Assembly (NCBI GenBank): GCA_050329585.1
Contig: JBHJOR010000032.1
Coordinates: forward strand, 1,228 to 65,227
Origin: Candidatus Methylacidiphilales bacterium
Lineage (GTDB): Bacteria > Verrucomicrobiota > Verrucomicrobiia > Methylacidiphilales > JBCBYL01
Reading direction: 5' to 3'
Length of the DNA stretch: 64,000 bases
Part shown: positions 10,306 through 29,243 of the stretch, piece by piece
Position numbering within the stretch: the first letter of the stretch is position 1
How the letters are laid out: every line of letters starts with the position of its first letter
The notes under the pieces: generated by a model
The model's database searches: none
What the model was told of the DNA's origin: nothing
What the model saw: only the letters and a program-made list of their open reading frames with translations
Made by a program: the position numbers and the translations under genes

Positions 10306-10320
10306 AAAAACAAAATAGTC

Positions 10321-11085
10321 TCAAACCGCGGGCCGCACCGCAATCCTTCGTTTCTGCAAATGCTCCTTCACTTGCGGAATCGTCAACTCTCCGAAATGAA
10401 AAAGGCTGGCGGCCAGAACGGCCGAAGCTCCGGTTTTTTCAAACACGTCGGAAAAATGATCCAGCGTGCCTGCCCCGCCGCTGGCGATGACCGGGACACC
10501 CACCGCATCCGACACCGCGGCTGTCAGATCGAGATCGTAACCGCTCAACGTGCCGTCCGCATCCATGCTGGTCAGTAAAATCTCCCCCGCTCCCAGATCC
10601 TCGGCCATCCGCACCCACTCCAGCACATCACGCCCCGTCGCCGTGCGTCCTCCATGGGTGAAGACTTCCCAAGATCCATCGCCCCGACGCTTGGCATCCA
10701 CCGCCACCACGATACATTGGCTGCCGAAAGCCGATGCCCCTTCGCGGATCAGTTCGGGACGGTTCACCGCACTGGTATTGATGCTTATTTTATCCGCACC
10801 CGCCCGCAACATCCGCCGCATGTCTGAAACCTCCCGGATGCCCCCACCCACCGTCAGCGGCATGAAAACCGATTCCGCCGTGCGCCGCACCACCTCCACC
10901 ATCGTCTCCCGGTTATCGCTGGAAGCGGTGATATCCAGAAAGACCAGCTCATCCGCCCCTTGGGCATCATAGGCCTGAGCCGCCTCCACCGGATCTCCTG
11001 CATCCCGGATTTCCACAAAACGCACCCCTTTGACCACGCGGCCGCGATCCACATCCAGACAGGGAATAACTCGTTTGGCTAACAT
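10321..11085 (-). CDS. hisF: Imidazole glycerol phosphate synthase cyclase subunit
   Basis: [12 protein letters not shown]..., full-length HisF similarity. The ORF track starts 13 codons earlier; the ATG at 11085 fits family N-termini. Confidence 0.95.
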
Positions 11086-11826
11086 GATGCGATTTACTGT
11101 GATACGTAGAAAGCCCCATCCCATCCAGCATTTTTTCCCTGCAATAGATAAAGAAAGCGGGATCTGCGGTTTTGTCGCAACGTGCGTTTGAGGCAGAGCA
11201 ATGATCCACAGGGGGCTCTGCTCGGAGACGCTTAAGTTCAGACTCCTGATCCATGGGCGTAATCCTTGTGTGTCTGGATCAAACCGCAGAACCGCCGACT
11301 TAACGAAAGTGCTTCCTTGATCCGTTCTTCCACCGACATACCACGCACTCGGCGTATTTCTGCAGCCCGCGAAGCCTCTGCACTGGAACTGCTGCGCTTT
11401 TTAGGAAAAGAGGTGGTAGTGCTTGCATTCATGGATTGATATACTATCAGCAGACTTGGATCAATGCTCCCCGGGAATGTCACATCTTCGCCGGAGAGGT
11501 GGCGCGGCTGGCTCCGCCAACAGGGGCGAATCCAAGCCGTGAAAGCCAATGTTTCTCCGCAGGCATTGACTGATTTTGACGGAAAGACTGCCACTATTCT
11601 TTTAGAGAAATAATGGCCAGTAATGCAGTCCACCGAACACCTGCCCGTCCGGCGGCTGCCGGACTTCCTGCTGCCGCTACGCTCGCAGGCCGCCAGACAT
11701 GGGTCCCACATTAATCATGTATGTAAACGGTCACCCATCAGTTAACTTACACTGTCAAAGAGAGTCATTTGATCATAGGATGACTTTGTTATACACTGCG
11801 GGACGTAACCCGGATTTTAGCAACTT

Positions 11827-12342
11827 ATGAAACCCATTTTAATGATTGCCTCTTTATTTATAGCGTCCTCGCTTTCTGCTCAGGATCTCCGTATTGTGGT
11901 TTATAAGTCGGAACGACGGCTCGATGTCTATCAACATTCGACCCTGGTGCACCGTTTCCGTATCGGTCTGGGAAACACTCCCGTGGGTGATAAAGAGAAA
12001 GCGGGTGACGGCAAAACCCCGGAAGGCACCTTTTATGTTTGCGTTAAAAATCCCAAGAGTCGTTTTTATTTGTCGCTCGGTATCAGCTATCCAGACGCCG
12101 ATGATGCGGCCCGTGGATTAAGAGATCAATTGATAACCAGAGAAGACCATGATCGCATTGTGGAAGCGCAACGCAAAAAAGGAATTCCTCCATGGAACAC
12201 TGCGCTAGGAGGCGAGGTATTTATCCATGGGCGAGGGGCACATTCAGATTGGACACTGGGCTGTGTTGCACTGGAAGATGCAGATATGAAGATGCTTTAC
12301 GACCTGATTGAAGTCGGAACCCAAGTGGAAATAAAACCGTAG
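11827..12342 (+). CDS. L,D-transpeptidase (YkuD) family protein, secreted
   Basis: Signal peptide; catalytic FIHGRGAHSDWTLGCVAL (His...Gly-Cys) motif. Confidence 0.85.
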   Translation: MKPILMIASLFIASSLSAQDLRIVVYKSERRLDVYQHSTLVHRFRIGLGNTPVGDKEKAGDGKTPEGTFYVCVKNPKSRFYLSLGISYPDADDAARGLRDQLITREDHDRIVEAQRKKGIPPWNTALGGEVFIHGRGAHSDWTLGCVALEDADMKMLYDLIEVGTQVEIKP

Positions 12343-12344
12343 AA

Positions 12345-12845
12345 GTGGTTCCAAGCAGCGACTTGCACAGCCTTATTCATATGAATACTCCGATTGTTAC
12401 ACCGACCGTTTCAGACCAAATCATCGCTTTCGCCGACCTGCATGGTTTTCACCGTTGTATCTGCGCCCAACTCAACCCGGAAGAGACTTTCTCTTTTCTT
12501 TCAGAATATTACGCCGCTGTGCAGGCCGTCATGGAGGGTTCGGAAGGAAAGATTATTAAATGGATGGGTGATGCGGCTTTATTGAGTTTCCCGGCTTCTA
12601 GCCCCGACGGCGCGATCCATATACTTAGAACAATCAAATCTGAAACGGATTTATTTTTGGCTCGTAAGGGCCACAAGGCCTACATGTGCATCAAAGCACA
12701 TGTAGGCCTTGTGGCCATGGGATCACTTGGAAATGGGGAATGGGCGCGATTGGATATTTGCGGGTTAGCCGTGAACCAAACTGCTCTACTACCCCATGAG
12801 GAATGGGTCTTATCCGACGAACTCAAGAAAAAGATGGGATCATAA
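12345..12845 (+). CDS. Stand-alone class III nucleotidyl-cyclase-homology domain protein (minimal, possibly degenerate)
   Basis: IAFADLHGF and KWMGDAALLSF match the two metal-Asp motifs; GLAVNQTALL keeps Asn but lacks the usual Arg. GTG start 2 nt after the previous stop, or ATG at 12381. Confidence 0.6.
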   Translation: MVPSSDLHSLIHMNTPIVTPTVSDQIIAFADLHGFHRCICAQLNPEETFSFLSEYYAAVQAVMEGSEGKIIKWMGDAALLSFPASSPDGAIHILRTIKSETDLFLARKGHKAYMCIKAHVGLVAMGSLGNGEWARLDICGLAVNQTALLPHEEWVLSDELKKKMGS

Positions 12846-15628: not shown

Positions 15629-16423
15629 GTGCTATCAAGTCATGACATGAGCACTCAAAACGCGGCAACACCTCCGCCGTTGGAAGTTCACGACCTGACT
15701 GTCGCCTATCATAAAAAGCCGGTTCTTTACGGTATTGATCTGTCTGTTTCAGAAGGAAATCTGGTGGGCATCATCGGGCCCAACGGAGCGGGTAAATCAA
15801 CCCTCATCAAAGCGGTGATGGGTCTGCTGCCCGCGTCCAGCGGTTGGGTCAAGATTTTCGGGAAATCCTACAAAGAGAATTGCCATCGGGTGGGATACCT
15901 CCCCCAGCGCGAATCCGTGGACTGGGATTTCCCCGTCAACGTGATGGATGTCGTGCTGATGGGTCGCTATGGACACCTGCGACTGGCCCAACGTCCCACT
16001 AAAAACGATCGGGAAATCGCCCGCCAGTGCCTTGAAAAAGTGAAGATGCTGCCCTTTGCCAACCGTCAAATCGGGAACCTCTCCGGCGGGCAGCAGCAAC
16101 GTGTCTTCTTAGCCCGTGCTCTGGCCCAGGAAAGCGATCTCTATCTGATGGATGAACCCTTTGTCGGGGTAGATGCTGCCACCGAATCGGCCATCATCGA
16201 CATTCTTCGTGAATTAAGATCTCGTGGCAAGACGCTGCTGGTGGTTCATCACGATCTGCCCAGTGCCCGTGACTATTTTGACCAGTTGATACTTTTGAAT
16301 ATGCGACTGGTGGCCTACGGATCCACGCCCAAGGTGTTTACTCCGGAGTTACTGCAGACCACCTACGGTGGACGTCTCACCATTCTTTCAGAAGTGGTTC
16401 AGACTATTGGAGCGCAGCCATGA
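15629..16423 (+). CDS. Metal ABC transporter ATP-binding protein
   Basis: Walker A GPNGAGKST, signature LSGGQQQRV, Walker B LYLMDEP; overlaps the next gene by 4 nt. The start may be the ATG at 15647. Confidence 0.92.
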   Translation: MLSSHDMSTQNAATPPPLEVHDLTVAYHKKPVLYGIDLSVSEGNLVGIIGPNGAGKSTLIKAVMGLLPASSGWVKIFGKSYKENCHRVGYLPQRESVDWDFPVNVMDVVLMGRYGHLRLAQRPTKNDREIARQCLEKVKMLPFANRQIGNLSGGQQQRVFLARALAQESDLYLMDEPFVGVDAATESAIIDILRELRSRGKTLLVVHHDLPSARDYFDQLILLNMRLVAYGSTPKVFTPELLQTTYGGRLTILSEVVQTIGAQP

Positions 16424-17874
16424 GGTGGTATAGCTTTGCTGCGGGGTTCGTCCTGCTTTTACTGCTTCCCGAAGCGGCCCATGCGGCCCGCATTAATGAG
16501 TTATCCGACTCCACTCTGTGGGATCGGACTGTTCGCTTTTTCACCTTTCAAGATCCCTCGCTTCGTTTTGCATTATTAGGATCTATGCTGCTTGGCATCG
16601 CCTGCGGGCTAATGGGTGTATTTCTGGTGGTGAGAAAATTGTCCTTGATGGGCGATGCGTTATCGCATGCGGTTCTTCCCGGAGTGGCTCTCGGATTTCT
16701 TTGGAACATGAGCAAAGATCCTGTGGCTATTTTCCTGGGAGCAACGCTGGTCGGTCTTCTGGGGGCTGGAACGGTCCAACTCATCCGCAACACCACCCGG
16801 CACAAAGAAGATGCGGCACTGGGATTTGTGCTGGCCTCCTTTTTCGGAGTTGGCATCTGCCTCTTCACAATGATTCAAAACCTGCCCGGCGGGAACAAAA
16901 GCGGTCTGGATCAATTCATGTTTGGCCAGGCCGCTGCACTTGGTCAAAGCGAAGTGATCCTGCTAGGGGTGGTAGCGGCACTAGCTTTGGGTTCGATATT
17001 TATTTTTTACAAAGAGTATGGCATCACCAGTTTTGATTCCGGTTTTGCCCGTTCCTTGGGTATGCCGGTTCAACTCTTTCACTATAGCTTAATGCTCCTT
17101 TTGGCCTTTTCTATTGTGGCTTCACTACAAGCGGTTGGAGTGGTCTTAGTCTCAGCCATGCTGGTCATACCGGCAGCAGCGGCCTTTTTATTAACCGATC
17201 GGCTGGGATCCATGTTGCTGCTTTCCGCTTTATTTGGACTTTGCGCGGGTGCGATGGGGACTTTTTTTTCATTTGTGGGGAGGAATCTACCCACAGGCCC
17301 GTTCATGGTTCTGGCGGCGGGAACGGTCTTTGTATTGGCACTGTTCCTCGGGCCCAGACACGGTATTCTGGCCCGCTGGTGGCGGCAGCGATCCCGCTCG
17401 GCGCGCATCCAGCGGGAGAATACGCTAAAAGCTATTTACCATGTTCTGGAGGATGATCTCTTTCGCGGGGAACAAATCAGTCTCCGCGAGCTGGCGGAAC
17501 GCCGTCGGGAGACACTGGAAGATGCCCGACACCAAGTGGGAAAGATCTGCCGTCATGGCATGGCAACGCTGGTTGGAGATGCTGTAGCCTTTACTCCTGC
17601 GGGTTGGCAGCGGGCTTGTGAGATTGTTCGCAATCACCGCCTATGGGAACTCTACCTGACGCATGCCGCCCACATCGCAGCGGATCATGTTCACGAAGAC
17701 GCGGAAAAAATTGAACACATCCTCGGTGAGGACAGCGTTAGGCAGTTGGAAAAGCGCCTCAATTATGCGCGCAGAGACCCTCACGGTAAACTCATCCCCG
17801 GCCTTGAAGACATGAGCGGTGGCACGGGCCCTCTGACGACGCGGCGGACCACCGGATTTGGAGTTTCTTATTAA
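16420..17874 (+). CDS. ABC-3 metal permease fused to a C-terminal DtxR-like repressor (YtgC-YtgR-like)
   Basis: The first ~320 aa are a polytopic ABC-3 permease. The last ~160 aa read TLKAIYHVLEDD...ISLRELAERR...NHRLWELYLTHAAHIAADHVHEDAEKIEHILGEDSVRQLEKRL, i.e. wHTH plus DtxR metal-binding/dimerisation domain. Confidence 0.85.
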   Translation: MRWYSFAAGFVLLLLLPEAAHAARINELSDSTLWDRTVRFFTFQDPSLRFALLGSMLLGIACGLMGVFLVVRKLSLMGDALSHAVLPGVALGFLWNMSKDPVAIFLGATLVGLLGAGTVQLIRNTTRHKEDAALGFVLASFFGVGICLFTMIQNLPGGNKSGLDQFMFGQAAALGQSEVILLGVVAALALGSIFIFYKEYGITSFDSGFARSLGMPVQLFHYSLMLLLAFSIVASLQAVGVVLVSAMLVIPAAAAFLLTDRLGSMLLLSALFGLCAGAMGTFFSFVGRNLPTGPFMVLAAGTVFVLALFLGPRHGILARWWRQRSRSARIQRENTLKAIYHVLEDDLFRGEQISLRELAERRRETLEDARHQVGKICRHGMATLVGDAVAFTPAGWQRACEIVRNHRLWELYLTHAAHIAADHVHEDAEKIEHILGEDSVRQLEKRLNYARRDPHGKLIPGLEDMSGGTGPLTTRRTTGFGVSY

Positions 17875-17879
17875 TTCCT

Positions 17880-18857
17880 ATGTCATCCTTCATTCCCCCA
17901 TTTGATTGGCACGGCGTCTTGATCCAGCCGTGGGCGACTGATTATTCCATCACCCTCTGGATTGTGCTGATGGGTTTTTTTGTTACCACCGCGTGCGGGC
18001 TGGTGGGGAATTATCTCTTGCTACGTCGCATGGCTCTGGTGGGCGATGCCATAAGCCACAGCATTCTGCCGGGACTGGTCATATCGTTCATGATTTTCAA
18101 ACAAGCTACACTCTGGGTGGGTTTCGCCGGCGCCTTCGCGGCAGCCATTGTTACCGTTTTATTAATCGAATTCATTCACCGGCAATCACGGGTAAAGCCC
18201 GACGCTGCGATTTGTATCGCCTTTACCACGCTGTTTGCCTTGGGGGTCATCCTCATGAGTGCGATGGAAAGCAAGGGTGCTTTTCACATTGACTCGGATA
18301 GTATTTTGTATGGCGAAATTGCCTTTGTGCATCTGGAGCCTTTTGTGGTCTGGAATGAGTGGGCTCTCGGTCCCCCCTCCGTTCTGAGGATGGGGGCGAC
18401 TTGTCTGGTCTTGTTCACAGCCATCCTCCTTTTTTACAAAGAGTTACTGATCACTTCATTTGATGCGGATTTGTCCAAGTCTCTGGGAATGAGCACCGGG
18501 ATTTGGTATTACGGGTTAATGGGTGCTTTGTCTTTGGCCATTGTGTCAGCTTTTGAGGCCGTGGGTGCCATTCTGGCGGTGGCCATGCTGATCGTGCCAC
18601 CGATGTTTGCGGGTCAACTTTCCCAGCGACTGCCCGTTCGGTTGATGCTGACCGTTTTACATGCGGCTCTGGCCTCACTGATAGGTCTGCATCTTTCGGT
18701 ATGGCTCAAGTGTTCAACCGCTGGTGCGATGGTGGTCGCATCCGCTCTGCTGTTCTGTTTGGCGTGGATCCACTCCGGAATACGAACCATGATCTTCCGG
18801 TTCCACTCCAGAACCGAATTAAGTCCGGCACTCGAGCAGGGTGTTAAGGCGAACTGA
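17880..18857 (+). CDS. ABC-3 metal transporter permease (second permease)
   Basis: 325 aa polytopic; MALVGDAISHSILPG motif of the ABC-3 family. Confidence 0.9.
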   Translation: MSSFIPPFDWHGVLIQPWATDYSITLWIVLMGFFVTTACGLVGNYLLLRRMALVGDAISHSILPGLVISFMIFKQATLWVGFAGAFAAAIVTVLLIEFIHRQSRVKPDAAICIAFTTLFALGVILMSAMESKGAFHIDSDSILYGEIAFVHLEPFVVWNEWALGPPSVLRMGATCLVLFTAILLFYKELLITSFDADLSKSLGMSTGIWYYGLMGALSLAIVSAFEAVGAILAVAMLIVPPMFAGQLSQRLPVRLMLTVLHAALASLIGLHLSVWLKCSTAGAMVVASALLFCLAWIHSGIRTMIFRFHSRTELSPALEQGVKAN

Positions 18858-18866
18858 TGTGGAAGC

Positions 18867-19388
18867 TCAGGCTTTGGTTTCTCCACCAGCCTCTTCATGA
18901 ATAGACTGGGTGGCCTCTGCAAGACGAAGACGATCCATCTTCTCCATGGGAAGGCACATCAGGAGTTCCAACCGTCTCGACATCTCCGCCGCGACTTTGT
19001 TGAAAAGGATCCAACGAATCTTCTCATCGATTTCTTCATTCGCCGGATCCTTAAAACCCCAATGCGCCGCAATGGGTTGCCCAGGCCATACCGGACATGA
19101 CTCTTTGGCGCGATCACACACCGTGATAACAAAATCAAATTCCGTCCCCTTGAATTCGTCCCATGACTTGCTGCGCGCGCCCTGCGGATCCACTTTCATG
19201 TGCTCCAGAGCACGAAGTGCCAAAGGGTGGACTTCTCCCCGGGGGTGTGAGCCCGCACTAAAGGATTCAAAACGACCCAACCCAATCTTTTTCATTAAGA
19301 ATTCCGCCATGATACTACGTGCGGAATTTCCGGTGCAGAGAAAGAGAATTTTGTGTTTTTGAGTGGGGTTTTCAGAGGAGGTGCTCAT
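18867..19388 (-). CDS. arsC: Arsenate reductase, LMW-PTPase family (thioredoxin-coupled type)
   Basis: KILFLCTGNSARS P-loop (CX5R) plus a downstream Cys pair in TVCDRAKESCP. Confidence 0.85.
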   Translation of the reverse strand: MSTSSENPTQKHKILFLCTGNSARSIMAEFLMKKIGLGRFESFSAGSHPRGEVHPLALRALEHMKVDPQGARSKSWDEFKGTEFDFVITVCDRAKESCPVWPGQPIAAHWGFKDPANEEIDEKIRWILFNKVAAEMSRRLELLMCLPMEKMDRLRLAEATQSIHEEAGGETKA

Positions 19389-19603
19389 AATTAGTTATGG
19401 GTTGTTAGGTGATGACGCTAACACCAAACCTATAAAGTGACGTTCCAGTGAAGCCTCGTTTACAATTAGGTGCCATTACAACAATTTATATTATTTAGTG
19501 TAATATCCTTCTGAGTAACCTGAGTTCAATCGAGTATCCTCTATTCGACTCATGAGCACTCTTTTCAAAACAAAAACCTGGCGATAGGGTATTACCGTTT
19601 CCC

Positions 19604-20872
19604 ATGTCCCGCCCCATAGTTTCAACCCTTATCCTCTCCACGATGATGGCCCTCCTCTGCGCCGGGTCATGTTGGTGGGGTTGGCACGTTTCGTTATTCA
19701 AGTTTTGGGATCACGCCGCTCAGGACTGGGCGCAGAACCAATTTCAAACGGAGGCAATCGAGGAAACTCCCCTGGTTTATGTCAAGATAGGGGATATCGC
19801 AGATCAACCCTGGCCATGGCCCAGTTTGGATTATGCGATTCTGGCTCACTCGCTTTCACGGTTTCATCCCAAGGTGGTGGTTTTTGAAGTGCCTGTTCCC
19901 AAAGTGGAGCCCTCAACGACGGCCTACGACATCCAGCTTAAGAATCAGCTCAAACGATTGAACCTGCTGATTCTATCGGTTCCCGTTCGAACCACCGGCA
20001 TCACGCTCGGAGAAGAACTCTCTCCGCGACCTTTTGCCACGCTTCCAGAAAATCCATCGATACCTGCTTATGGATCAGGAATCTGGCCACTCAATGAAAT
20101 CCGTGAGGTATCGCGCCTGCACCTTCAGGCCTATCCTGCAGATCCCGACGGCTTGGTGCGTCGCATTCCCCTGATTATTAATTACCAAGGCCGCTCGACT
20201 GCCAGTCAGGTTCTGGCCGCCTATGCCGCCTATCGCGGGGCCGATATAGCGGCATCCGGCGTTGTTTTGGGTCAATCCATCCGGCTCAAAAACAAAGCGG
20301 GTGAATTTCTGGAATCGATTCCCGTCAATCATAACGGCGAATTGACTCTGAAGCTGCGCCGCGACTCCACGCATTTGAGGAAAGAGGTGGAATTTTACTC
20401 GGTCATTCTGGCGGCGGAGGAACAATACCATGCGGGCTCCCCTTCCTTTGACCTCGGCGTCCTCCGTCAAAGTCTGGTTTTAGTTGGCAGAGAAAATGCT
20501 TATTCTGTGGAAAGCCTGCCAACCCCAACCGGAACAATAACTCCGGCCCGATTACAACTCAATGCCCTTAGCAACTTGATTCAGCGCGATTATCTTCAAC
20601 CCATCACCCCGCTTGCCATGAGTCTCTTGCTACTCCTAAGCGCTTTCACCGGAATAGGATGCTCCCGGCTCCTGAATGCAGTCGGCGGGCTGATCGTCTT
20701 GCTGTTCGTAGGCGGCCTGCTGGTGGGAGGCTCCGTCGTTTTTTTTGTTCACTGGAATTTCTTAATCGACCCCTCCGCTCCTCTAGTATGCCTGGTGGTT
20801 TCATGGTGGATGGGTCGAACCCTGCTGCCATATTTCGAACTGGTCATCAGCCCTGAAGCAGATTCAATCTGA
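19604..20872 (+). CDS. CHASE2 sensor-domain membrane protein without an output domain
   Basis: N-terminal TM, ~300-aa periplasmic region (VYVKIGDIADQPWPWPSLDYAILAHSLSRFHPKVVVFEV, DPDGLVRRIPL) and a C-terminal cluster of TM helices, after which the protein ends. Confidence 0.7.
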   Translation: MSRPIVSTLILSTMMALLCAGSCWWGWHVSLFKFWDHAAQDWAQNQFQTEAIEETPLVYVKIGDIADQPWPWPSLDYAILAHSLSRFHPKVVVFEVPVPKVEPSTTAYDIQLKNQLKRLNLLILSVPVRTTGITLGEELSPRPFATLPENPSIPAYGSGIWPLNEIREVSRLHLQAYPADPDGLVRRIPLIINYQGRSTASQVLAAYAAYRGADIAASGVVLGQSIRLKNKAGEFLESIPVNHNGELTLKLRRDSTHLRKEVEFYSVILAAEEQYHAGSPSFDLGVLRQSLVLVGRENAYSVESLPTPTGTITPARLQLNALSNLIQRDYLQPITPLAMSLLLLLSAFTGIGCSRLLNAVGGLIVLLFVGGLLVGGSVVFFVHWNFLIDPSAPLVCLVVSWWMGRTLLPYFELVISPEADSI

Positions 20873-20892
20873 CTCTAGCCCGCTCCGATATC

Positions 20893-23481
20893 ATGTCGCT
20901 TCCCTCCTCCACATCCTTTTCCCAACTCAGTCAGGAGCTGATACGTCAGACTGAATTCTGCGGAGAAAACGGCAAAACGCGTGCATTTTATTGCGACTTG
21001 GTTCAAACCCTTCAGCAGACACCGCAGAAAGTTTTAAAAGAGCGCCAGGAACGCGTTGCCAACTTGGCGCGGGAATTAGGCATCCACTTTTCCCCGCATC
21101 GCGATGGACAGGTGACCGATCACAACTGGCAACTCGACATCATTCCGCGGCTTATCGACCCTGCCGAATGGCGAGTCATCGAGGCAGGTCTGATTCAGCG
21201 AATGCGTGCATTCAACGCGTTACTCGACGACATCTATCACCAACGTTCCATTCTCAAGGATCGCATCATTCCCTTTCAGCTTATTTACGACGATCCCGCC
21301 CACCTCCTTCCCTGCCACGGCATCCAACAGCCCGGTAATATCCATCTCACCTTAGGAGCAGTGGATATGGTCAGGGATCGGCGCGGACGGTGGGTCATCA
21401 CCTCCAACCACTATTCCCTTCCCAACGGACTCTCCTTCGTGCTGCAAAACCGCCGCATGTTAACCCAATCGTTCCCTGAGATTTTCCACCCGGTTCCGAT
21501 TGTTCCGGTGACCGGTTTCACCTCGGATCTGGCCGAAACGCTGTCCGCATTATCCCCCGTCTCCAAACCTCTGGTCGTCATGCTGACCTTATCGCGGGAT
21601 CATCGTCACTGGTTTGAAGAAAGTTTCTTGGCGCGCCGTATGGGTTTCCCCTTGGTTGAACCTGGTGACCTTCTGGTGCGTGACAACCGCGTCTATCTTA
21701 AAACAGTGGGAGGCCTTGAACGTGTCGACGTCATCTATCGCCGCGCACCCAGCAGGCTTTTGGATCCCATCGCCTTCCGCAGCGCGCGTGGCTCCGGTAT
21801 TCCCGGACTGCTCAATTGCGTGCGCAAGGGCTCGGTCGTCATCGCCAACGCCTTCGGGGCGGGCGTTGCCGACAACAAAGCACTTCTTTCTTATTCCGAT
21901 GCCATCATTCGATATTATCTCGGCGAAGCCCCCATTCTTCCCACCGCCACCACCTATTGGTGCAGGGATCGCGATCAACTGGAATACGTTAAATCGCATC
22001 CGGGCACCATGTTGTTGAAGCCCATACACCGTCATGTTGAGACTGCACCCGCGAACGGGCTCGAAGTGAGTGATCAGTATGATTACCTCAAAAAAATGGA
22101 TCTGATGCTGGAACAGAGCCCGGATCTGGTGGTGGCACAGCCTTACATAGACGCCTCTTGTGCTCCACTGTATCAGGACGGGAAATTCTGGTCGCGCCCC
22201 GCATACCTGCGCGCGTTCTGCCTCATTGGCACCAAAGCGAGCGTGCTACCGGGAGGGTTGACCCGTCAGGCACTGCCCGGTGAAAGCCATCATTACATAG
22301 CCGATTTGGCCGGGGGAGCTAAAGACACCTGGATTCCCGCCTTCGGAACCTCCACTCCCGTTCCCAGCAACCAAGCTCTCCAACTGGCTCGTAAACGTGT
22401 CGAAGAGAAACCGTTCCGCACCACCAGCCGCGTCGCCGAGCAACTCTATTGGACCGGTCGCTATCTCGAGCGCGCCGAGCACACCGCGCGCATGATCCGT
22501 ATTCTGCTCGAACTTGGCTGGAACTCCCTCTCGACACGAGAGAAACTCAACCGCTGGCCGCTCTGGCAGGGTGTTGCCGCCTCCACCGGTCACGAAGATC
22601 TCACCAAATCCAAGAAACCCCCGACTGAAACCCTGCCCATCGCACGCGAGTTGGTTCTGCACTCGGAAAAAGCCTCATCTATCCTTAATTGCGTCCGCTT
22701 CGCCTCACGCAATGCCAGTGAAATACGCGAATTCTTAACCCCGGAAGTGTGGAGCGTGCTCAACCGCTTTTTGCTGCGGCTTGAAGACACGCCGCATAAA
22801 ACCCGCATCTCCGCCACGCGGCTTCAAGATGTCTGCCTTGAAACCACCGAACATGTGGCCCTCATTAATGGAACGATCAGCAGAACCATGCCGCATGACG
22901 ACGGCTGGCAAGCCTTTCGCTGCGGAGTTCTGCTGGAGCGTGCCTTGGGCACCGCTACTGTTCTCGGTATCGTTTTACCCCAAGCCATTCTGTTTCATAG
23001 TCACGATCACGATCAGGATCCCGACCTCACCTCACTGCTGCGTATGCTCGGATCGTTAGACGCCTATCAACGCGAATACCGCTCCCGCGCCTACCTACGA
23101 CAGGTTGCTGAACTGCTCTGGAAAAAAAACGACATCCCCGGTTCCATACTCTATTGCTTGCGAGAACTCAGCCAGCACCTCACTGCGCTGGAAGAGAAGG
23201 CGCGTCTTAAATCCACCCGATCCCCGCTGCACCGCACACGACGTCTGGAAAAAGCGCTCGACACTCTTGATACCTTTCCGCTCTTTCCGCGGCGCAATCT
23301 GGATTCTGACCTTATGGAATCCAACCTGAAAAAAGAAAATCAGCCCATGTCACGAAGCGTCCAGCAGTTGGGCCAGAGATGGATCGCAGAACTGGCCGCG
23401 CTTCACGATTTGATCGAAGACGCTTTTTTTAGTCACCTCCCCGGAACCGCGCGCCATTTGGGTCGTCGCACTAAGCCATGA
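20893..23481 (+). CDS. Circularly permuted ATP-grasp (type 2) fused to an alpha-E domain
   Basis: 862 aa; GSVVIANAFGAGVADNKALLSYSDAIIRYYLGEAPILPTATTYWC (CP-ATP-grasp), then SRVAEQLYWTGRYLERAEHTARMIRIL (alpha-E). Confidence 0.85.
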   Translation: MSLPSSTSFSQLSQELIRQTEFCGENGKTRAFYCDLVQTLQQTPQKVLKERQERVANLARELGIHFSPHRDGQVTDHNWQLDIIPRLIDPAEWRVIEAGLIQRMRAFNALLDDIYHQRSILKDRIIPFQLIYDDPAHLLPCHGIQQPGNIHLTLGAVDMVRDRRGRWVITSNHYSLPNGLSFVLQNRRMLTQSFPEIFHPVPIVPVTGFTSDLAETLSALSPVSKPLVVMLTLSRDHRHWFEESFLARRMGFPLVEPGDLLVRDNRVYLKTVGGLERVDVIYRRAPSRLLDPIAFRSARGSGIPGLLNCVRKGSVVIANAFGAGVADNKALLSYSDAIIRYYLGEAPILPTATTYWCRDRDQLEYVKSHPGTMLLKPIHRHVETAPANGLEVSDQYDYLKKMDLMLEQSPDLVVAQPYIDASCAPLYQDGKFWSRPAYLRAFCLIGTKASVLPGGLTRQALPGESHHYIADLAGGAKDTWIPAFGTSTPVPSNQALQLARKRVEEKPFRTTSRVAEQLYWTGRYLERAEHTARMIRILLELGWNSLSTREKLNRWPLWQGVAASTGHEDLTKSKKPPTETLPIARELVLHSEKASSILNCVRFASRNASEIREFLTPEVWSVLNRFLLRLEDTPHKTRISATRLQDVCLETTEHVALINGTISRTMPHDDGWQAFRCGVLLERALGTATVLGIVLPQAILFHSHDHDQDPDLTSLLRMLGSLDAYQREYRSRAYLRQVAELLWKKNDIPGSILYCLRELSQHLTALEEKARLKSTRSPLHRTRRLEKALDTLDTFPLFPRRNLDSDLMESNLKKENQPMSRSVQQLGQRWIAELAALHDLIEDAFFSHLPGTARHLGRRTKP

Positions 23482-24353
23482 TTTTCCGCATTACTCACAA
23501 AACGGTTTACCATTACCAGTCGCCTGCCTCCGAGTCGTATGGAGAGCTGCGCATTTGCCCGCTTTCGAATCCTTCTCAGGCGGTTCTTAAGCGCCAACTC
23601 ACCGTCACGCCGGCCACCCGCATACGGCATTACGATGATGTTTTTGGAAACCGCGTGGAATTTTTTTCCATACCCCACCGGCACGACATGCTGGAAGTGC
23701 ACGCCACCGCCGAGGTGCGCACCCACCCGCAAACGATGCCCGAGGCGGCAGAGTTGATAACCATTGCTGAAAGCCGTCAGGTCTTAGCCCGGCGGCTGAT
23801 GGACAACTACATTTACCTTCGCGCCACACCTCTTGTTCCCCTGCACGGAGTCCTTACCCCCCTGCGCACAGACTTCATCAAGCGTCATCAATCCATCGCG
23901 TCCGCTCTACTGTTCGTCAATCAATGGATCCACAAAAATATTCAATACCAGCCGGGGGTCACCAACAGTAACACCGCCCTACAGACGATCATCCAAAAAC
24001 GACGCGGCGTCTGTCAGGACTTTGCTCATTTAATGCTCTCCATTCTACGCACCTATGAAATTCCGGCGCGCTACGTCAGCGGATACATAGAAGCGTATGA
24101 TCCTTCGACGACCGACCCCGCACTGGTGGGAGCCACGGCTAGTCATGCCTGGGTCGAGGCCCTCTTGCCTGGAGGCCAATGGGTGGGACTCGATCCGACC
24201 AACAATCAGATCGCCAGTGAGCGTCACGTCCGTGTCGCGGTGGGCAGAGACTATCAGGATGTTGCTCCCTTGACCGGAACCTTTAAGGGTGCTCATAACC
24301 AGAATCTCAATGTGATCGTTTCCGTAAAGCGCAAAAAAAAGCCATCGTTATGA
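23478..24353 (+). CDS. Transglutaminase-like cysteine protease family protein
   Basis: MIFRITHKTVYHYQSP (Bact_transglu_N); Cys/His/Asp contexts GVCQDFAH, ASHAWVEA, GLDPTN; ATGA overlap with both neighbours. Confidence 0.9.
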   Translation: MIFRITHKTVYHYQSPASESYGELRICPLSNPSQAVLKRQLTVTPATRIRHYDDVFGNRVEFFSIPHRHDMLEVHATAEVRTHPQTMPEAAELITIAESRQVLARRLMDNYIYLRATPLVPLHGVLTPLRTDFIKRHQSIASALLFVNQWIHKNIQYQPGVTNSNTALQTIIQKRRGVCQDFAHLMLSILRTYEIPARYVSGYIEAYDPSTTDPALVGATASHAWVEALLPGGQWVGLDPTNNQIASERHVRVAVGRDYQDVAPLTGTFKGAHNQNLNVIVSVKRKKKPSL

Positions 24354-26479
24354 ACAATTCAGGATCTCTGCAACCCTCCAGTCCAGAAACGGCTTGTAGC
24401 AGAATCGAGGCCCTCCTTCGCCGCCACCGCATCACGCTGACCATGGGAGGAGAACCTACGTTTGTCCCGTTGGATCCCAAGGGTGACGAATGGAGTCTCG
24501 CTGCGCTGGGACCCAGCAAACTGGGCTACGCCCGCGCCATGGCACTTCACCTTATCGAGTCCTCATGGCCTGGAGCACTGATGCTGCAGACTTACGGTAA
24601 AACCTACCCGGGTGAACCTTTACCTCGTTGGAATATCGTTATCGAAATGCGGCACCGCTTTGATCAATCTCCCTTGTGGAACCGTCCTCAGCTACTCACG
24701 TCTGACCAACCGCCCGCTCGTCCTGTAACCGCCGCTCAAGCCTCCTCACTGGCCCGGCTCATTGCCCGCCGACTGGGTTTTGCAGACTATCTCATGCGTT
24801 TCCGTGAGGTGGAATCCGGCCGGGCTCCGGCATGGGTGTTACCTCTTCTTTTTGATGACGAAACCATGGTTTTCCAGACCGCCCGCTGGACGCTGGAAAA
24901 AAAGCAACAGACTCTGATCCCCGGTGACAGCACTGCTGGACTGCGATTACCTTTGGATCGGCTGGCCCCGGACACCCCCCGAAAGGCATTAGTTATTCAA
25001 GCTCAGGATTCCGCCGTGATGGTTTTTATTCCGCCATTGAGCCGCCGCGGGTTTGACCTGCTTACGCGTGTTGTCGAGGAAAGTTGTCAGAGCTTGCCCG
25101 ACCACTCCGTGATGCTGGCGGGATATCCGCCCACCGACGGATCGATGTTCGACCGGCTGATTTTGGCGTCAGATCCCGGCGTGCTGGAAATCAACCTGCC
25201 GCCCAAAGAAAACTGGATCGAACACCGGCACATCTTGCGGCAGGTTTACGACGCGGCCCACGCCGTGGGCCTGTGCGCCCGCAAATTCCACTTCAATGGG
25301 GATATTCATGGAACGGGAGGCGGTGCTCACTTGGCTTTTGGGGGTGCCACCGTGGAACAAAGCCCCTTCCTCACGCACCCTACCCTTCTTCGATCCGTAG
25401 TGCGCTACTGGCATAATCACCCCTGCCTGAGCTACTTGTTTACGGGAATCTTCGTAGGACCCGGATCCCAGGCCCCACGTGTCGATGAATCCAATCCCCT
25501 CCTGCTCCAAGAACTTGAATTGGCTCTTTCCTCACCACTACCGCGACGCCCGACTTTTGAAAATATCTACCTGCCGTTGCGCCATTTTTTTGTGGATGCT
25601 GCGGGCAATACCCACCGGGCTGAAATCTGCCTGGATAAACTCTGGAATCTTTCTTCGTCCAATGGCTGCTCCGGATTGATAGAATTCCGCGCTTTTGAAA
25701 CCTGTGAATCAGCTGACGAACTGGCTTGGGCTTCCTTACTCATCCGGGCGGTTATCACCCGCCTCATTCACCGGCCCTACACGGAACCACTTCGCCCCTG
25801 GGGAAACGTGCTGCACGATGCCTATTTTTTAAAACCCTTTTTGGAACAGGATCTGGAATCCATTCTTCAAGATTTGGAAAGCTGCAACATCTCACTGCCT
25901 CGCTCCGCCTTCAGCTCTTATTGGGCCAGGCGTTTTCCACACCTCGGCACATTTGAGTTCGGGGAGAATCGGCGCTTGGATTTTTACTCCGCGCCGGAAA
26001 TCTGGCCGCTACTGAGTGAGGTTCCCTCGGGCAGTGTCACGTCCCGGCCGGTTGATGTCAGTAATGAACGCATCATGGCTCTGGCCTCACATGCCCCGAT
26101 CTCGCGGCAGGGATGGTTGCGCTGTGCGGATATCCCGTTCCAACTACGCACCCATGGCCGCAAGGCCTTGCGCGGTATACGCTTCCGGGCTCTCGTCTCA
26201 GTCAACTCGCTGCATCCGCATCTTCCGGTGCACGTCCCGCTAAAAATCCAATGGGTGGACGCGGCCTCCGGCATGGTCACTCACTCGGCACGCTTCTATC
26301 CTTGGAATCCCGGTGGTAAAGATTACCCCGGACGCCCGAAAACGGCCGAAGAAGCCGCACAGAGACGCAAGGAACGTTGGGTCACCCCCACGTTCAAACC
26401 CTCGCGTCACGGGAACAAACCACCCCTGAAAGACCAACAGGGATGGACATTTGATCTCCGGCTAACGCGGCAGACTTAA
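24350..26479 (+). CDS. DUF2126 putative glutamine-synthetase-like amidoligase
   Basis: 709 aa; LTMGGEPTFVPLDPKGDEWSLAALGPSK...YPGEPLPRW block typical of DUF2126. Confidence 0.8.
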   Translation: MNNSGSLQPSSPETACSRIEALLRRHRITLTMGGEPTFVPLDPKGDEWSLAALGPSKLGYARAMALHLIESSWPGALMLQTYGKTYPGEPLPRWNIVIEMRHRFDQSPLWNRPQLLTSDQPPARPVTAAQASSLARLIARRLGFADYLMRFREVESGRAPAWVLPLLFDDETMVFQTARWTLEKKQQTLIPGDSTAGLRLPLDRLAPDTPRKALVIQAQDSAVMVFIPPLSRRGFDLLTRVVEESCQSLPDHSVMLAGYPPTDGSMFDRLILASDPGVLEINLPPKENWIEHRHILRQVYDAAHAVGLCARKFHFNGDIHGTGGGAHLAFGGATVEQSPFLTHPTLLRSVVRYWHNHPCLSYLFTGIFVGPGSQAPRVDESNPLLLQELELALSSPLPRRPTFENIYLPLRHFFVDAAGNTHRAEICLDKLWNLSSSNGCSGLIEFRAFETCESADELAWASLLIRAVITRLIHRPYTEPLRPWGNVLHDAYFLKPFLEQDLESILQDLESCNISLPRSAFSSYWARRFPHLGTFEFGENRRLDFYSAPEIWPLLSEVPSGSVTSRPVDVSNERIMALASHAPISRQGWLRCADIPFQLRTHGRKALRGIRFRALVSVNSLHPHLPVHVPLKIQWVDAASGMVTHSARFYPWNPGGKDYPGRPKTAEEAAQRRKERWVTPTFKPSRHGNKPPLKDQQGWTFDLRLTRQT

Positions 26480-28395
26480 CGGCCGCGACGGGGGCGATCT
26501 GTGCGACCACCTTCCCCACGATCCGGACGGCGTCCGCTGCCTGATCGAGGAGAGTGCCGCTCCGGACGGGCACTGCGGCCACCTTCGCGCTCACCCGATC
26601 CTGCCGACGATCTAGCCGACCGGGGGCGTTCCGAACCGGATGCGTCACGCTTGAAATCACGGCGCCCCTCAATGAAACGTGGACGATCCGATGTACGTTT
26701 ATCGCCATCGCCACTACGGGAGGGGGGACGACTTGGACGAAATTCAGAGCGCCCACCTTCACTCGGGCGCGCGGGGCGGAACTCCGAGCTGGATCTCTCA
26801 GATTGACGTGGGGGTCTTGACTCAGACCGTCCTCCCTCCGCGCGGCGTGCGGGACGGAACTCCGAGCGTCCACCCTCGGTTCTCGCCGGACGATCCGAAC
26901 GGCTCGTTGAAGAGGAACGCTCTCTGGATCCGGATTCGGTATCGCGCGAGAAACGTCGTCCCGATGAGGGTGGGCGTGATTCCCGCCTTTCTGAACTACT
27001 GCGTTCTCCGCCAGATGAACGTGAGTCGTTTCCTTCGAAACGACGACGTTCCGGTCTGGATTCTCCACGCTCCCTGGGGGCACTGGAAGATGAACGTCTG
27101 CGCTCTGCACCACCACCGCCACTTCCACCTTGACGACGGCGACGTTGAGGTGCGCGACTGCGCGGATCTTTGGAGCGTTCCAGATAGGCAGCCGCCAAAT
27201 CATCCGAGTGGTAGGGATGTTCCACCATAACCGGGATGGATTTACCGATCCATTTTTCCACTTCTTTTAATTCACCTAATTCCTCATGGGAGCACAATGT
27301 CAGTGCCATGCCTTCGGCTCCCGCCCGGGCGGTGCGGCCGATGCGGTGAACATAGGATTCCGGATCATCAGGCAGATCAAAGTTCACCACCAAGGTGATA
27401 TCTTTGACATCGATGCCCCGGGCCGCCACGTCGGTGGCAACTAGAACCCGGACTTTTTTAGCCCGGAATGCCTGTAAGGCGCGTTCTCGTGCGGCTTGGC
27501 TTTTGCCGCCGTGAATCACTTCGACACGGTGACCGGCTTGGGCCAGTTTGATGCTGAGTTTTTCCGAGCCGTGTTTGGTTCTTCCAAAAATCAGGGTGAG
27601 TGGTGAGCCGGCTTCGTTCTTTTGGGCTTCCAGCATTTCATTGAGAAAGGTCAGCTTGTCATCACGTTTCATAAAGCAAACATGCTGCTGGATGCGATCC
27701 CCGGTGGTTTTTTGGGGTGTAATGCTGACTTGGGCCGGCTGGCGTAATAGCGAGTTCGCTAACTCGCGCACTGCGGGAGCCATGGTGGCGGAAAAGAACA
27801 GGGTTTGCCGTGTTTCAGGCATCTCGGCCGAGATTTTGCGCATGTCATGGATGAACCCCATATCGAGCATCCGGTCGGCCTCATCGAGGACAAAAAACTC
27901 GACTTTACGCAAATCGACATGGCCGCTTTCCATGAGGTCCATCAATCGCCCCGGAGTGGCGACCAATACATCGACACCGCGGGACATGGCCTTGATTTGG
28001 GGGGTGTAACCGACACCGCCGTAAACCAGGGCTTTGGAAACGCGCAGGTGTTTGCCGTAGGTTTCGACACTTTTGGAAACTTGGATGGCCAGCTCTCGAG
28101 TAGGCACCAGGACTAAGGCGCGCACCGTCTTGGGTGCGGGCTTCTGGGTGTGCAGGGCCAAGCGGTGCAGCAAGGGCAGGGAGAATGCCGCTGTTTTACC
28201 TGTGCCGGTTTGAGCGCAGCCCAACAGGTCGCGCCCTTCAAGGATCAACGGAATAGCTTGCGCCTGGATAGGCGTGGGGATGGTGTAGTTTTGTTCCGTT
28301 AAGGCGCGTTGAACAGGTTCAGCGAGCGCCATGGAGGCAAAGGTGATGTCGGGGATGGAAGGGGTGTCAGTCGTGGGTTGGAGGGGGTCATTCAT
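26476..28395 (-). CDS. rhlE: DEAD-box ATP-dependent RNA helicase (RhlE-like) with ~230-aa Arg/Ser/Gly/Glu-rich C-terminal tail
   Basis: AQTGTGKTAAF, VLDEADRM, SAT, HRIGRTARAG motifs. The tail has repeated EGGRSEFRPARP-like units. Confidence 0.93.
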   Translation of the reverse strand: MNDPLQPTTDTPSIPDITFASMALAEPVQRALTEQNYTIPTPIQAQAIPLILEGRDLLGCAQTGTGKTAAFSLPLLHRLALHTQKPAPKTVRALVLVPTRELAIQVSKSVETYGKHLRVSKALVYGGVGYTPQIKAMSRGVDVLVATPGRLMDLMESGHVDLRKVEFFVLDEADRMLDMGFIHDMRKISAEMPETRQTLFFSATMAPAVRELANSLLRQPAQVSITPQKTTGDRIQQHVCFMKRDDKLTFLNEMLEAQKNEAGSPLTLIFGRTKHGSEKLSIKLAQAGHRVEVIHGGKSQAARERALQAFRAKKVRVLVATDVAARGIDVKDITLVVNFDLPDDPESYVHRIGRTARAGAEGMALTLCSHEELGELKEVEKWIGKSIPVMVEHPYHSDDLAAAYLERSKDPRSRAPQRRRRQGGSGGGGAERRRSSSSAPRERGESRPERRRFEGNDSRSSGGERSSSERRESRPPSSGRRFSRDTESGSRERSSSTSRSDRPARTEGGRSEFRPARRAEGGRSESRPPRQSERSSSEFRPARPSEGGRSEFRPSRPPSRSGDGDKRTSDRPRFIEGRRDFKRDASGSERPRSARSSAGSGEREGGRSARPERHSPRSGSGRRPDRGEGGRTDRPRRGR

Positions 28396-28419
28396 AGGAG
28401 TCCTTGGTATATGATAATA

Positions 28420-28452
28420 TTCCGGGTTCGGGATTCATTTCCCGAACTGGAA
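28420..28452 (-). promoter_or_regulatory. Stem-loop in the helicase 5' leader
   Basis: TTCCGGGTTCGGGA / TCCCGAACTGGAA arms around a 6-nt loop, ending 25 nt upstream of the start codon. Confidence 0.3.
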
Positions 28453-28745
28453 GCGTGTCTTCTGTTCTTCTAATCTCGATCTAATTTCGAATAGATCCGA
28501 GAGGGTTCGATGTCGTATTGCCCGATCTACACCTCATCGAAAGGAACAGTCCAGGAGGCTCTTATTTGATCACTGCCATGACAACCGTGAATGCCTAATG
28601 TTCTACTAGAGTAAATTATCTTTCCTGCAAGGATTATCTTAACCTTAGACTACTTCCTCACCCCGGAGCCGAAGGCACATCTTAAACCTTTCATTTCATT
28701 TTTTTGCTTTTCAATACTATTCGCTTGTATTAACATATAAGCGAA

Positions 28746-29243
28746 GTGAAAAAGCAGTCTGCTCAAAATGATTTGGAGCGTTTGACTAACCTGACTCTCT
28801 ATCTCCAGCGCCATTTTGTCATCAGCCTGACGGAGCAAACCAGCGAGCTCAAACTTTCCATCCCGCAATACACCCTGCTGGGATTTTTAATCGCCAACGG
28901 TCCCACCACCATGGGTAATCTGGCTCTGATGATGGGACACTCAACCCCTGCGGCAACCGGTTTGGTGGATCGGTTGTGCCGATCTGGTTTTCTGGAACGC
29001 AGCCCGGGTTCGAATGATCGACGCCAAGTGGTCGTCAGTATCACTGAAAACGGTCGCCACTTAATGGATCATACCCGAGGGGAGCTCATCCGATGCCTTT
29101 CGGAAATCCGTTCCCGACTTCCCCCCGAAGATCAAAAAGCATGGCTGCGCGTCTATGAGGCGATGCACGATTACTGTGAGGAAAAACGCTCCAAAACCGC
29201 AGAAGGTCTTACCCGCGAGTCAACAGGCTCCGCTAAAAACTAG
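28746..29243 (+). CDS. MarR-family transcriptional regulator
   Basis: 165 aa; LSIPQYTLLGFLIANGPTTMGNLALMMGHSTPAATGLVDRLCRSGFLERSPGSNDRRQVVVSITENG is a MarR wHTH. Confidence 0.85.
   Translation: MKKQSAQNDLERLTNLTLYLQRHFVISLTEQTSELKLSIPQYTLLGFLIANGPTTMGNLALMMGHSTPAATGLVDRLCRSGFLERSPGSNDRRQVVVSITENGRHLMDHTRGELIRCLSEIRSRLPPEDQKAWLRVYEAMHDYCEEKRSKTAEGLTRESTGSAKN

Follow-up and report, generated by a model that had tools for sequence, protein, structure and literature searches.

Gene cluster and encoded proteins

A cluster of three open reading frames (ORFs), encoding an ATP-grasp-Alpha-E fusion protein, a transglutaminase-like (TG) protein and a DUF2126 protein, was analysed in a 64-kb stretch of DNA, referred to as the window, from a metagenome-assembled genome (MAG) of an uncultured member of the Methylacidiphilales (Verrucomicrobiota). 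Contigs of two MAG assemblies of this order, GCA_964442275.1 and GCA_036770695.1, show the same arrangement of genes and encode a protein (P0121) identical to ORF3, and no second transglutaminase, ATP-grasp, Alpha-E or DUF2126 gene was found within the 64-kb window. The features of the cluster are listed below in window coordinates.

20893..23481, + strand: ORF1, 862 amino acids (aa), CP_ATPgrasp_2 and Alpha-E domains (Pfam)
23478..23481, + strand: ATGA start/stop overlap of ORF1 and ORF2, read in the sequence
23478..24353, + strand: ORF2, 291 aa, transglutaminase-like, class TG-A (Pfam and class hidden Markov models, HMMs)
24350..24353, + strand: ATGA start/stop overlap of ORF2 and ORF3, read in the sequence
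24350..26479, + strand: ORF3, 709 aa, DUF2126 without a transglutaminase domain (Pfam)

The three ORFs, their coordinates and lengths and both ATGA overlaps had been described in a first-pass annotation of the sequence and were confirmed, and every domain named there scored far above its Pfam gathering score. For comparison, 80 genome loci encoding DUF2126 relatives were examined (at least 590 stretches matched) and were annotated with HMMs built from the window proteins plus their matches. On its own an NTGA overlap says little, since one arises wherever a TGA stop comes after A, G or T; counting against this chance-overlap caveat, ORF2 and ORF3 both align with their own families from the first residues. 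The junction between the ATP-grasp-Alpha-E and TG-A genes is a 4-nt or 1-nt overlap in 38 of 44 related loci, and the TG N-termini at these overlapping junctions begin M-x-[FY]-x-[IV], matching the start of the domain.

Both Pfam models of ORF1 lie in one polypeptide, in the order CP_ATPgrasp_2 (PF14403; residues 85-460, nt 21145-22272, E=5.7e-117, 391 bits against a cut-off of 32) and then Alpha-E (PF04168; residues 512-846, nt 22426-23430, E=6.7e-60, 204 bits against a cut-off of 20.8). The conserved ER motif of Alpha-E is E526-R527 (nt 22468-22473), inside YWTGRYLERAE, and ORF1 retains 70 of the 71 columns with at least 90 % conservation across 118 homologues. The ATP-grasp part matches PDB entry 3n6x, a circularly permuted (CP) ATP-grasp deposited under the name 'putative glutathionylspermidine synthase', with E=1e-81. 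The AlphaFold2 (AF2) model of the Alpha-E domain is all-alpha (pLDDT 92.7), and a fold search of this model against solved structures returned no relative, the best match (E=0.18) being among unrelated membrane and helical proteins. In a large protein search, which did return the identical copy of ORF3, ORF1 had no match above 61 % identity, though the MAG contigs carry an 862-aa gene call; the missing near-identical match is probably a gap in the search index and no biological difference.

ORF2 contains Bact_transglu_N (PF08379; residues 3-80, E=1.6e-22) and Transglut_core (PF01841; residues 139-240, E=6.7e-23), matches PDB entry 3isr (E=1.7e-19) and retains 46 of 52 strongly conserved columns. 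The Cys/His/Asp contexts reported earlier are indeed intact: the triad consists of C179 (nt 24012-24014), H223 (nt 24144-24146) and D239 (nt 24192-24194) and aligns with that of all 40 TG genes that come after a fused ATP-grasp-Alpha-E gene. The transglutaminases of the neighbourhood fall into two classes, of which TG-A comes after ATP-grasp-Alpha-E. TG-B occurs in two forms, as the N-terminal domain in fusions with DUF2126 and as a gene of its own immediately before a DUF2126-only gene. Against the class HMMs ORF2 scored 294 bits for TG-A and 130 bits for TG-B, and pairwise scores against the groups of genes were as follows.

Verrucomicrobial TG-A genes: 242-332 bits
Canonical TG-A genes: 125-170 bits
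TG domains of DUF2126 fusions: 54-95 bits
TG genes just upstream of DUF2126-only genes: 64-80 bits

The lowest scores were thus those against the TG-B groups (medians 68 and 67-74 bits). Because both the class HMMs and the pairwise scores favour TG-A, ORF2 is assigned to that class, and TG-B is absent from the locus. ORF2 had earlier been viewed as the detached transglutaminase half of DUF2126, a proposal that the two class scores rule out, and it is instead the orthologue of the separate TG gene that always comes after ATP-grasp-Alpha-E. The Cys-His-Asp triad is kept throughout both classes (65/65, 40/40 and 7/7), and the TG-B domain lost here is therefore predicted to be catalytically competent in relatives.

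ORF3 matches DUF2126 (PF09899) with E=2.1e-162 and 542.6 bits against a cut-off of 27, residues 208-704 being the best of three matching stretches. The MGGEPTFV and YPGEPLPRW blocks, which were said to open the protein, are present near its start, at residues 32-39 and 86-94 respectively. ORF3 retains 161 of 172 conserved columns, all charged ones included. The 11 deviations were considered as a signature of TG-B loss, but this is unsupported, since most are unique to the window protein, an example being W175, which is kept in 118 of 119 relatives. The AF2 model of ORF3, made with 105 homologues, has a pLDDT of 93.4 and a pTM of 0.93, and its top 50 Foldseek matches in the PDB are all carboxylate-amine ligases of the glutamine synthetase (GS) fold, namely YbdK/GCS2, glutamine synthetases, gamma-glutamylmethylamide synthetase (GmaS), 1-naphthylamine GS and the depupylase Dop. 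These matches are weak (E>=2.4e-3, TM-score 0.26-0.37), and neither a profile of 105 DUF2126 sequences nor a single-sequence search found a solved DUF2126 relative in the PDB. ORF3 is accordingly described here as a predicted carboxylate-amine ligase with a putative, highly divergent GS-like core; the modelled fold agrees with the Pfam label "putative amidoligase", short of proof.

Gene arrangement among relatives

Fusion of ATP-grasp with Alpha-E and separation of transglutaminase from DUF2126 had both been put forward as unusual, and the survey of relatives found each to be a common form. All 120 best ORF1 homologues are single proteins of ~600-890 aa in which CP_ATPgrasp_2 and Alpha-E are fused. 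Within 10 kb of DUF2126, 44 of the 80 loci have a fused gene and 33 a separate pair, and ATP-grasp/Alpha-E genes are present within this distance in 63/80 loci from many phyla. The separate ATP-grasp and Alpha-E genes given as usual in the first-pass annotation are the form of the Anbu-type operon (PMC6376114), and beside DUF2126 the fused form prevails. All 120 best ORF3 homologues are DUF2126-only proteins of ~700 aa, mostly from Verrucomicrobiota. DUF2126 relatives form 2308 clusters at 50 % identity, and among the 149 nearest cluster representatives the commonest form is TG-less DUF2126 (58 complete proteins, compared with ~30 TG fusions). A metagenome scan with ORF3 returned 6 loci, too few for a census.

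The locus had been placed in the amidoligase neighbourhood that Iyer, Aravind and colleagues predicted, and this was right. The dominant layout of this neighbourhood consists of a TG-DUF2126 fusion gene (~1100 aa), a fused ATP-grasp-Alpha-E gene (~830-860 aa) and a TG gene (~295 aa); it spans Proteobacteria, Actinobacteria, Bacteroidota and Acidobacteria, and often has a second, separate ATP-grasp and Alpha-E pair in front. At the place equivalent to the ORF2/ORF3 junction, most relatives having a DUF2126-only gene carry a TG-B gene, and short overlaps join TG-A, TG-B and DUF2126, or TG-B and DUF2126, in L003, L088 and L089. A separate TG-B gene is kept in Verrucomicrobial and related loci (L003, L005, L007, L022 and L087-L091). 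The form without TG-B recurs in other Verrucomicrobiota: loci L085 and L093, whose DUF2126 proteins are 52 % and 51 % identical to ORF3, have the same order of ATP-grasp-Alpha-E, TG-A and DUF2126 genes as the window, L094 has a lone DUF2126 gene with an ATP-grasp-Alpha-E/TG-A pair 2.4 kb downstream and three other genes between, and one genome has the pair (L086) and a lone DUF2126 gene (L095) on different contigs. L085 lies in the MAG assembly GCA_039027395.1, and L093 on a Logan contig of run SRR28370466. The genes that come after the lone DUF2126 gene of L094, ahead of the pair, include those for an ABA4-like protein and an ABC-2 transporter (10185-12591), and a GNAT acetyltransferase gene comes after that of L095 (10155-10607).

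Such scattered arrangements bear on the proposal that ATP-grasp-Alpha-E with TG-A and DUF2126 are two independent modules, the overlap at 24350-24353 being a by-product of TG-B deletion. The L094 and L095 arrangements fit it, as do the closest ORF1 relatives (59 % identity, L083 and L086), which have ATP-grasp-Alpha-E and TG-A only. However, the genome with L086 and L095 still has both modules, the proximity of DUF2126 to ATP-grasp/Alpha-E genes in 63 of the 80 loci extends over many phyla, and three lineages with only ~50 % identity (the window, L085 and L093) have retained the three-gene arrangement. Independence of the two modules is considered unlikely.

In a neighbour-joining (NJ) tree of DUF2126, calculated without bootstrap, the DUF2126-only proteins form one clade nested among the fusions, and within the tree the window protein groups with those of L093, L085 and L095, with L094 placed elsewhere. 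This placement, in a tree without bootstrap values, suggests one split followed by at least two losses of TG-B. TG-B can be fused, split or lost, and the only peculiarity at the level of the locus is the absence of the DUF2126-linked transglutaminase, which is common to several relatives. Since its layout is the normal one for the neighbourhood and for the lineage, the locus is almost certainly an ordinary member of a widespread neighbourhood, in a reduced three-gene Verrucomicrobial form from which TG-B was lost.

In one related clade, a class-II glutamine amidotransferase domain (GATase_4, an Ntn-hydrolase) precedes TG-A in the same polypeptide, giving proteins of ~615 aa encoded after separate ATP-grasp and Alpha-E genes at the following positions.

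L006, 6169-8007: GATase_4-TG-A fusion
L088, 4148-6013: GATase_4-TG-A fusion
L089, 4178-6025: GATase_4-TG-A fusion
L091, 4160-6007: GATase_4-TG-A fusion

The GATase_4 family includes the gamma-glutamyl amidohydrolase EgtC. The fusion may hint at glutamine or gamma-glutamyl amide bonds as targets of the system; as a general feature of the system it was rejected, being confined to these four loci.

Possible function

DUF2126 was not found mentioned by name in the literature searched, and no published substrate, product or covalent protein tag was found for the system, in line with the first-pass annotation, which knew of no defined substrate or product. The M. tuberculosis homologues Rv2567 and Rv2411c have appeared only as candidates for a gamma-aminobutyric acid (GABA)-trehalose synthase, with a negative outcome (bioRxiv 10.64898/2026.04.15.718621).

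No signal peptide or transmembrane segment was found in ORF1, ORF2 or ORF3, and for this reason the three proteins are predicted from sequence to be cytosolic. The cluster may tentatively be read as encoding a make-and-trim pathway in the cytosol, whose small product would contain an amide link and would most plausibly be a gamma-glutamyl-type peptide or a conjugate with an amine. Two successive ligations are envisaged, one by ORF3 with its GS/GCS2-like fold and one by the ATP-grasp of ORF1; in each, a carboxylate would be activated to an acyl-phosphate and then coupled to an amine, in a manner that could be likened to GshA and GshB, or to glutathionylspermidine synthetase. The Alpha-E domain would act as a substrate-binding or regulatory partner of the ATP-grasp, ORF2 would use its Cys-His-Asp site to hydrolyse or transfer the amide bond as a reversing or processing amidase, and tight translational coupling would keep the ratios of the three proteins constant. 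A connection with nitrogen economy would be plausible by analogy with the paralogous Anbu operon of Pseudomonas putida, which is strongly induced under nitrogen limitation (PMC3235984, PMC8050072).

The points counted for a make-and-trim pathway, still a tentative proposal, were the intact conserved residues, the 3n6x match, the GS-fold matches, the cytosolic set of proteins and the lack of room for a tag precursor, together with the proximity of DUF2126 to ATP-grasp/Alpha-E genes in 63/80 loci, the layouts of L085 and L093, the GATase_4-TG-A fusion and the Anbu-operon data. Weighing against it, the original comparative-genomics prediction of Iyer et al. is said to have preferred the tagging of proteins with a peptide; the match to the GS fold is weak (best E=2.4e-3, TM-score <=0.37) and is not seen at the level of sequence profiles; and substrate, product and phenotype are not on record for any family member. 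To these points are added that the role given to Alpha-E is a guess, because a structural analogue was not found, that the GATase_4 fusion is limited to four loci of one clade, and that the nitrogen-limitation data come from another phylum and from a paralogous operon, which includes Anbu and in which ATP-grasp and Alpha-E are encoded separately (PMC3235984, PMC8050072).

The main alternative is a pupylation-like tagging of proteins or peptides, in which the ligase or ligases would attach an amino acid or short peptide to the side chains or termini of targets and the transglutaminase would remove or process the tag. The Foldseek matches of DUF2126 include Dop of the Pup system (7oyh, 5lrt, 4b0r), and each ligase has an ancestral papain-fold partner of its own (TG-A for ATP-grasp, TG-B for DUF2126), which recalls the PafA/Dop pair of ligase and deconjugase; a modified protein has never been reported, however, and no tag-precursor gene was found in the cluster or adjoining it, nor could one fit inside, because the genes overlap. 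Although Anbu, which is proteasome-like, is often part of the paralogous operon (PMC6376114, PMC5666114), none of the genes called in the ~21 kb surrounding the cluster (locus L001) belonged to an Anbu, proteasome-like or Ntn family, and the proteins of the Anbu operon gave no stable complexes and no peptidase activity (PMC6376114). Tagging is on this evidence regarded as rather doubtful.

A different role for ORF2 alone is raised by Rv2569c of M. tuberculosis, which is presumably of the same TG class. Rv2569c was reported to be on the cell wall and to degrade E-cadherin, casein and fibronectin; its activity was blocked by serine-protease inhibitors and not by thiol reagents, and it was called a surface "serine protease", whereas its conserved domain predicts a cysteine protease (PMC11081392). 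By extension, ORF2 would be a protease that is secreted or lies at the surface and attacks external proteins, and the ligases would be unrelated to it. This is extremely improbable, since ORF2 has no signal peptide or hydrophobic segment (max KD19 0.89) and is translationally coupled to two ligases that are predicted to be cytosolic, and the inhibitor profile of Rv2569c does not fit a Cys-His-Asp site and may not reflect native function.

Returning to the make-and-trim pathway, if the single TG-A serves both ligases, then ATP-grasp-Alpha-E and DUF2126 would act on one shared intermediate. A more specific version, which is speculative and quite unlikely to hold as it stands, is that the recurrent cluster without TG-B (window, L085 and L093) is a minimal working set for a two-step, glutathione-like route to a novel product used in nitrogen or stress physiology, which would be a gamma-glutamyl peptide or an amine conjugate and no protein tag.

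The CP-ATP-grasp/Alpha-E/transglutaminase/DUF2126 neighbourhood belongs to the more widespread of the bacterial clusters without a known product, with carriers that include Pseudomonas and, presumably, M. tuberculosis, and interest attaches to the family as a whole, whose function is unsolved, and not to the present locus. Since the locus brings in no further component and its source is an uncultured Methylacidiphilales MAG, it does not by itself make the function more testable. Its value is comparative, in that the transglutaminases are cleanly split into a ligase-specific TG-A and a DUF2126-specific TG-B, and the persistence of the three-gene set in several lineages narrows the minimal system to reconstitute.

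Flanking genes and comparison with known systems

The genes directly on either side of the cluster are the following.

19604..20872, + strand: CHASE2-domain membrane protein, upstream of ORF1 (Pfam CHASE2, E=1.5e-22)
26476-28395, - strand: DEAD-box helicase gene, convergent with ORF3, with a 4-nt overlap of the 3' ends at 26476-26479

The CHASE2 protein is 422 aa long when read from its first ATG, compared with 408 aa as called in the MAG, and has an N-terminal transmembrane segment and a C-terminal transmembrane cluster; a kinase, cyclase or other output domain is absent. Co-transcription of this gene with ORF1 is possible, as its stop codon lies 20 nt before ORF1 on the same strand. It was rejected as a component of the system, the upstream genes in L083, L085, L086 and L094 being unrelated, and neither it nor the helicase gene is conserved beside the cluster in relatives. 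The overlap of the 3' ends leaves no space for a terminator between ORF3 and the helicase gene. In a promoter and terminator scan of 18800-28800 the counts equalled the shuffled expectation, and Rfam matched only three tRNAs in the whole window, with no riboswitch found near the cluster. ORF1-3 and the CHASE2 protein had no match in PADLOC, and NCBIfam gave no informative match, so a reading of the cluster as an anti-phage defence system was dropped.

Elsewhere in the window, an ABC-3 (Mn/Zn-type) permease (16420-17874, + strand) carries a C-terminal Fe_dep_repr_C domain (residues 392-460), which is the DtxR-type metal-binding and dimerisation domain. The gene is part of a ZnuA / ABC_tran / ABC-3 / ABC-3 operon that starts ~140 nt from a divergent DtxR-family repressor gene, and this joining of a transporter subunit to a metal-sensing domain of the regulator type may merit attention.

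Among known systems, the glutathione-type pathways combine two ligases, one of the GS/GCS fold and one an ATP-grasp, with a thiol or Ntn amidase, as in GshA/GshB, glutathionylspermidine synthetase/amidase and EgtA/EgtC. By analogy, the window set would share their pairing of enzyme folds and their ligase-plus-amidase logic, but its proteins have no sequence-level membership of these enzyme families and Alpha-E has no counterpart there. The comparative genomics of Iyer et al. in 2009 reportedly defined a predicted peptide-tagging system made up of CP ATP-grasp, Alpha-E, a CP GS-like ligase and an Ntn-hydrolase peptidase. The window likewise encodes an ATP-grasp, Alpha-E and a predicted GS-like ligase together, but the Anbu-type Ntn-hydrolase of that set was not found within ~21 kb around the cluster.

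The Anbu operon of Pseudomonas, Yersinia and cyanobacteria has homologous CP ATP-grasp, Alpha-E and TG-A-type transglutaminase proteins, as in the window. There, the ATP-grasp and Alpha-E genes are separate, Anbu (an Ntn-hydrolase) is present and DUF2126 is absent, whereas in the window they are fused, Anbu is missing and DUF2126 is added. The ATP-grasp of the Yersinia Anbu operon releases phosphate from ATP, and the published hypotheses on the role of the operon were stated as unconfirmed (PMC6376114).

The canonical neighbourhood, with TG-DUF2126, ATP-grasp-Alpha-E and TG genes, is represented in the window by the same families, the same ATP-grasp-Alpha-E fusion and the same overlap with TG-A. 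The order is rotated in the window, with DUF2126 last instead of first, and three catalytic modules are present in place of four, the N-terminal TG-B domain being absent. Rv2566-Rv2567 of M. tuberculosis presumably belong to this canonical neighbourhood. In the Verrucomicrobial split form, found in Rubritalea (L003) and also in L005, L007 and L022, the genes encode ATP-grasp-Alpha-E, TG-A, TG-B and a DUF2126 protein of ~700 aa. This form has TG-B, which the window, L085 and L093 do not, so that in these three TG-A directly abuts DUF2126; in gene order, in short overlaps and in membership of the same DUF2126-only clade of the NJ tree, the window and the split form are alike.

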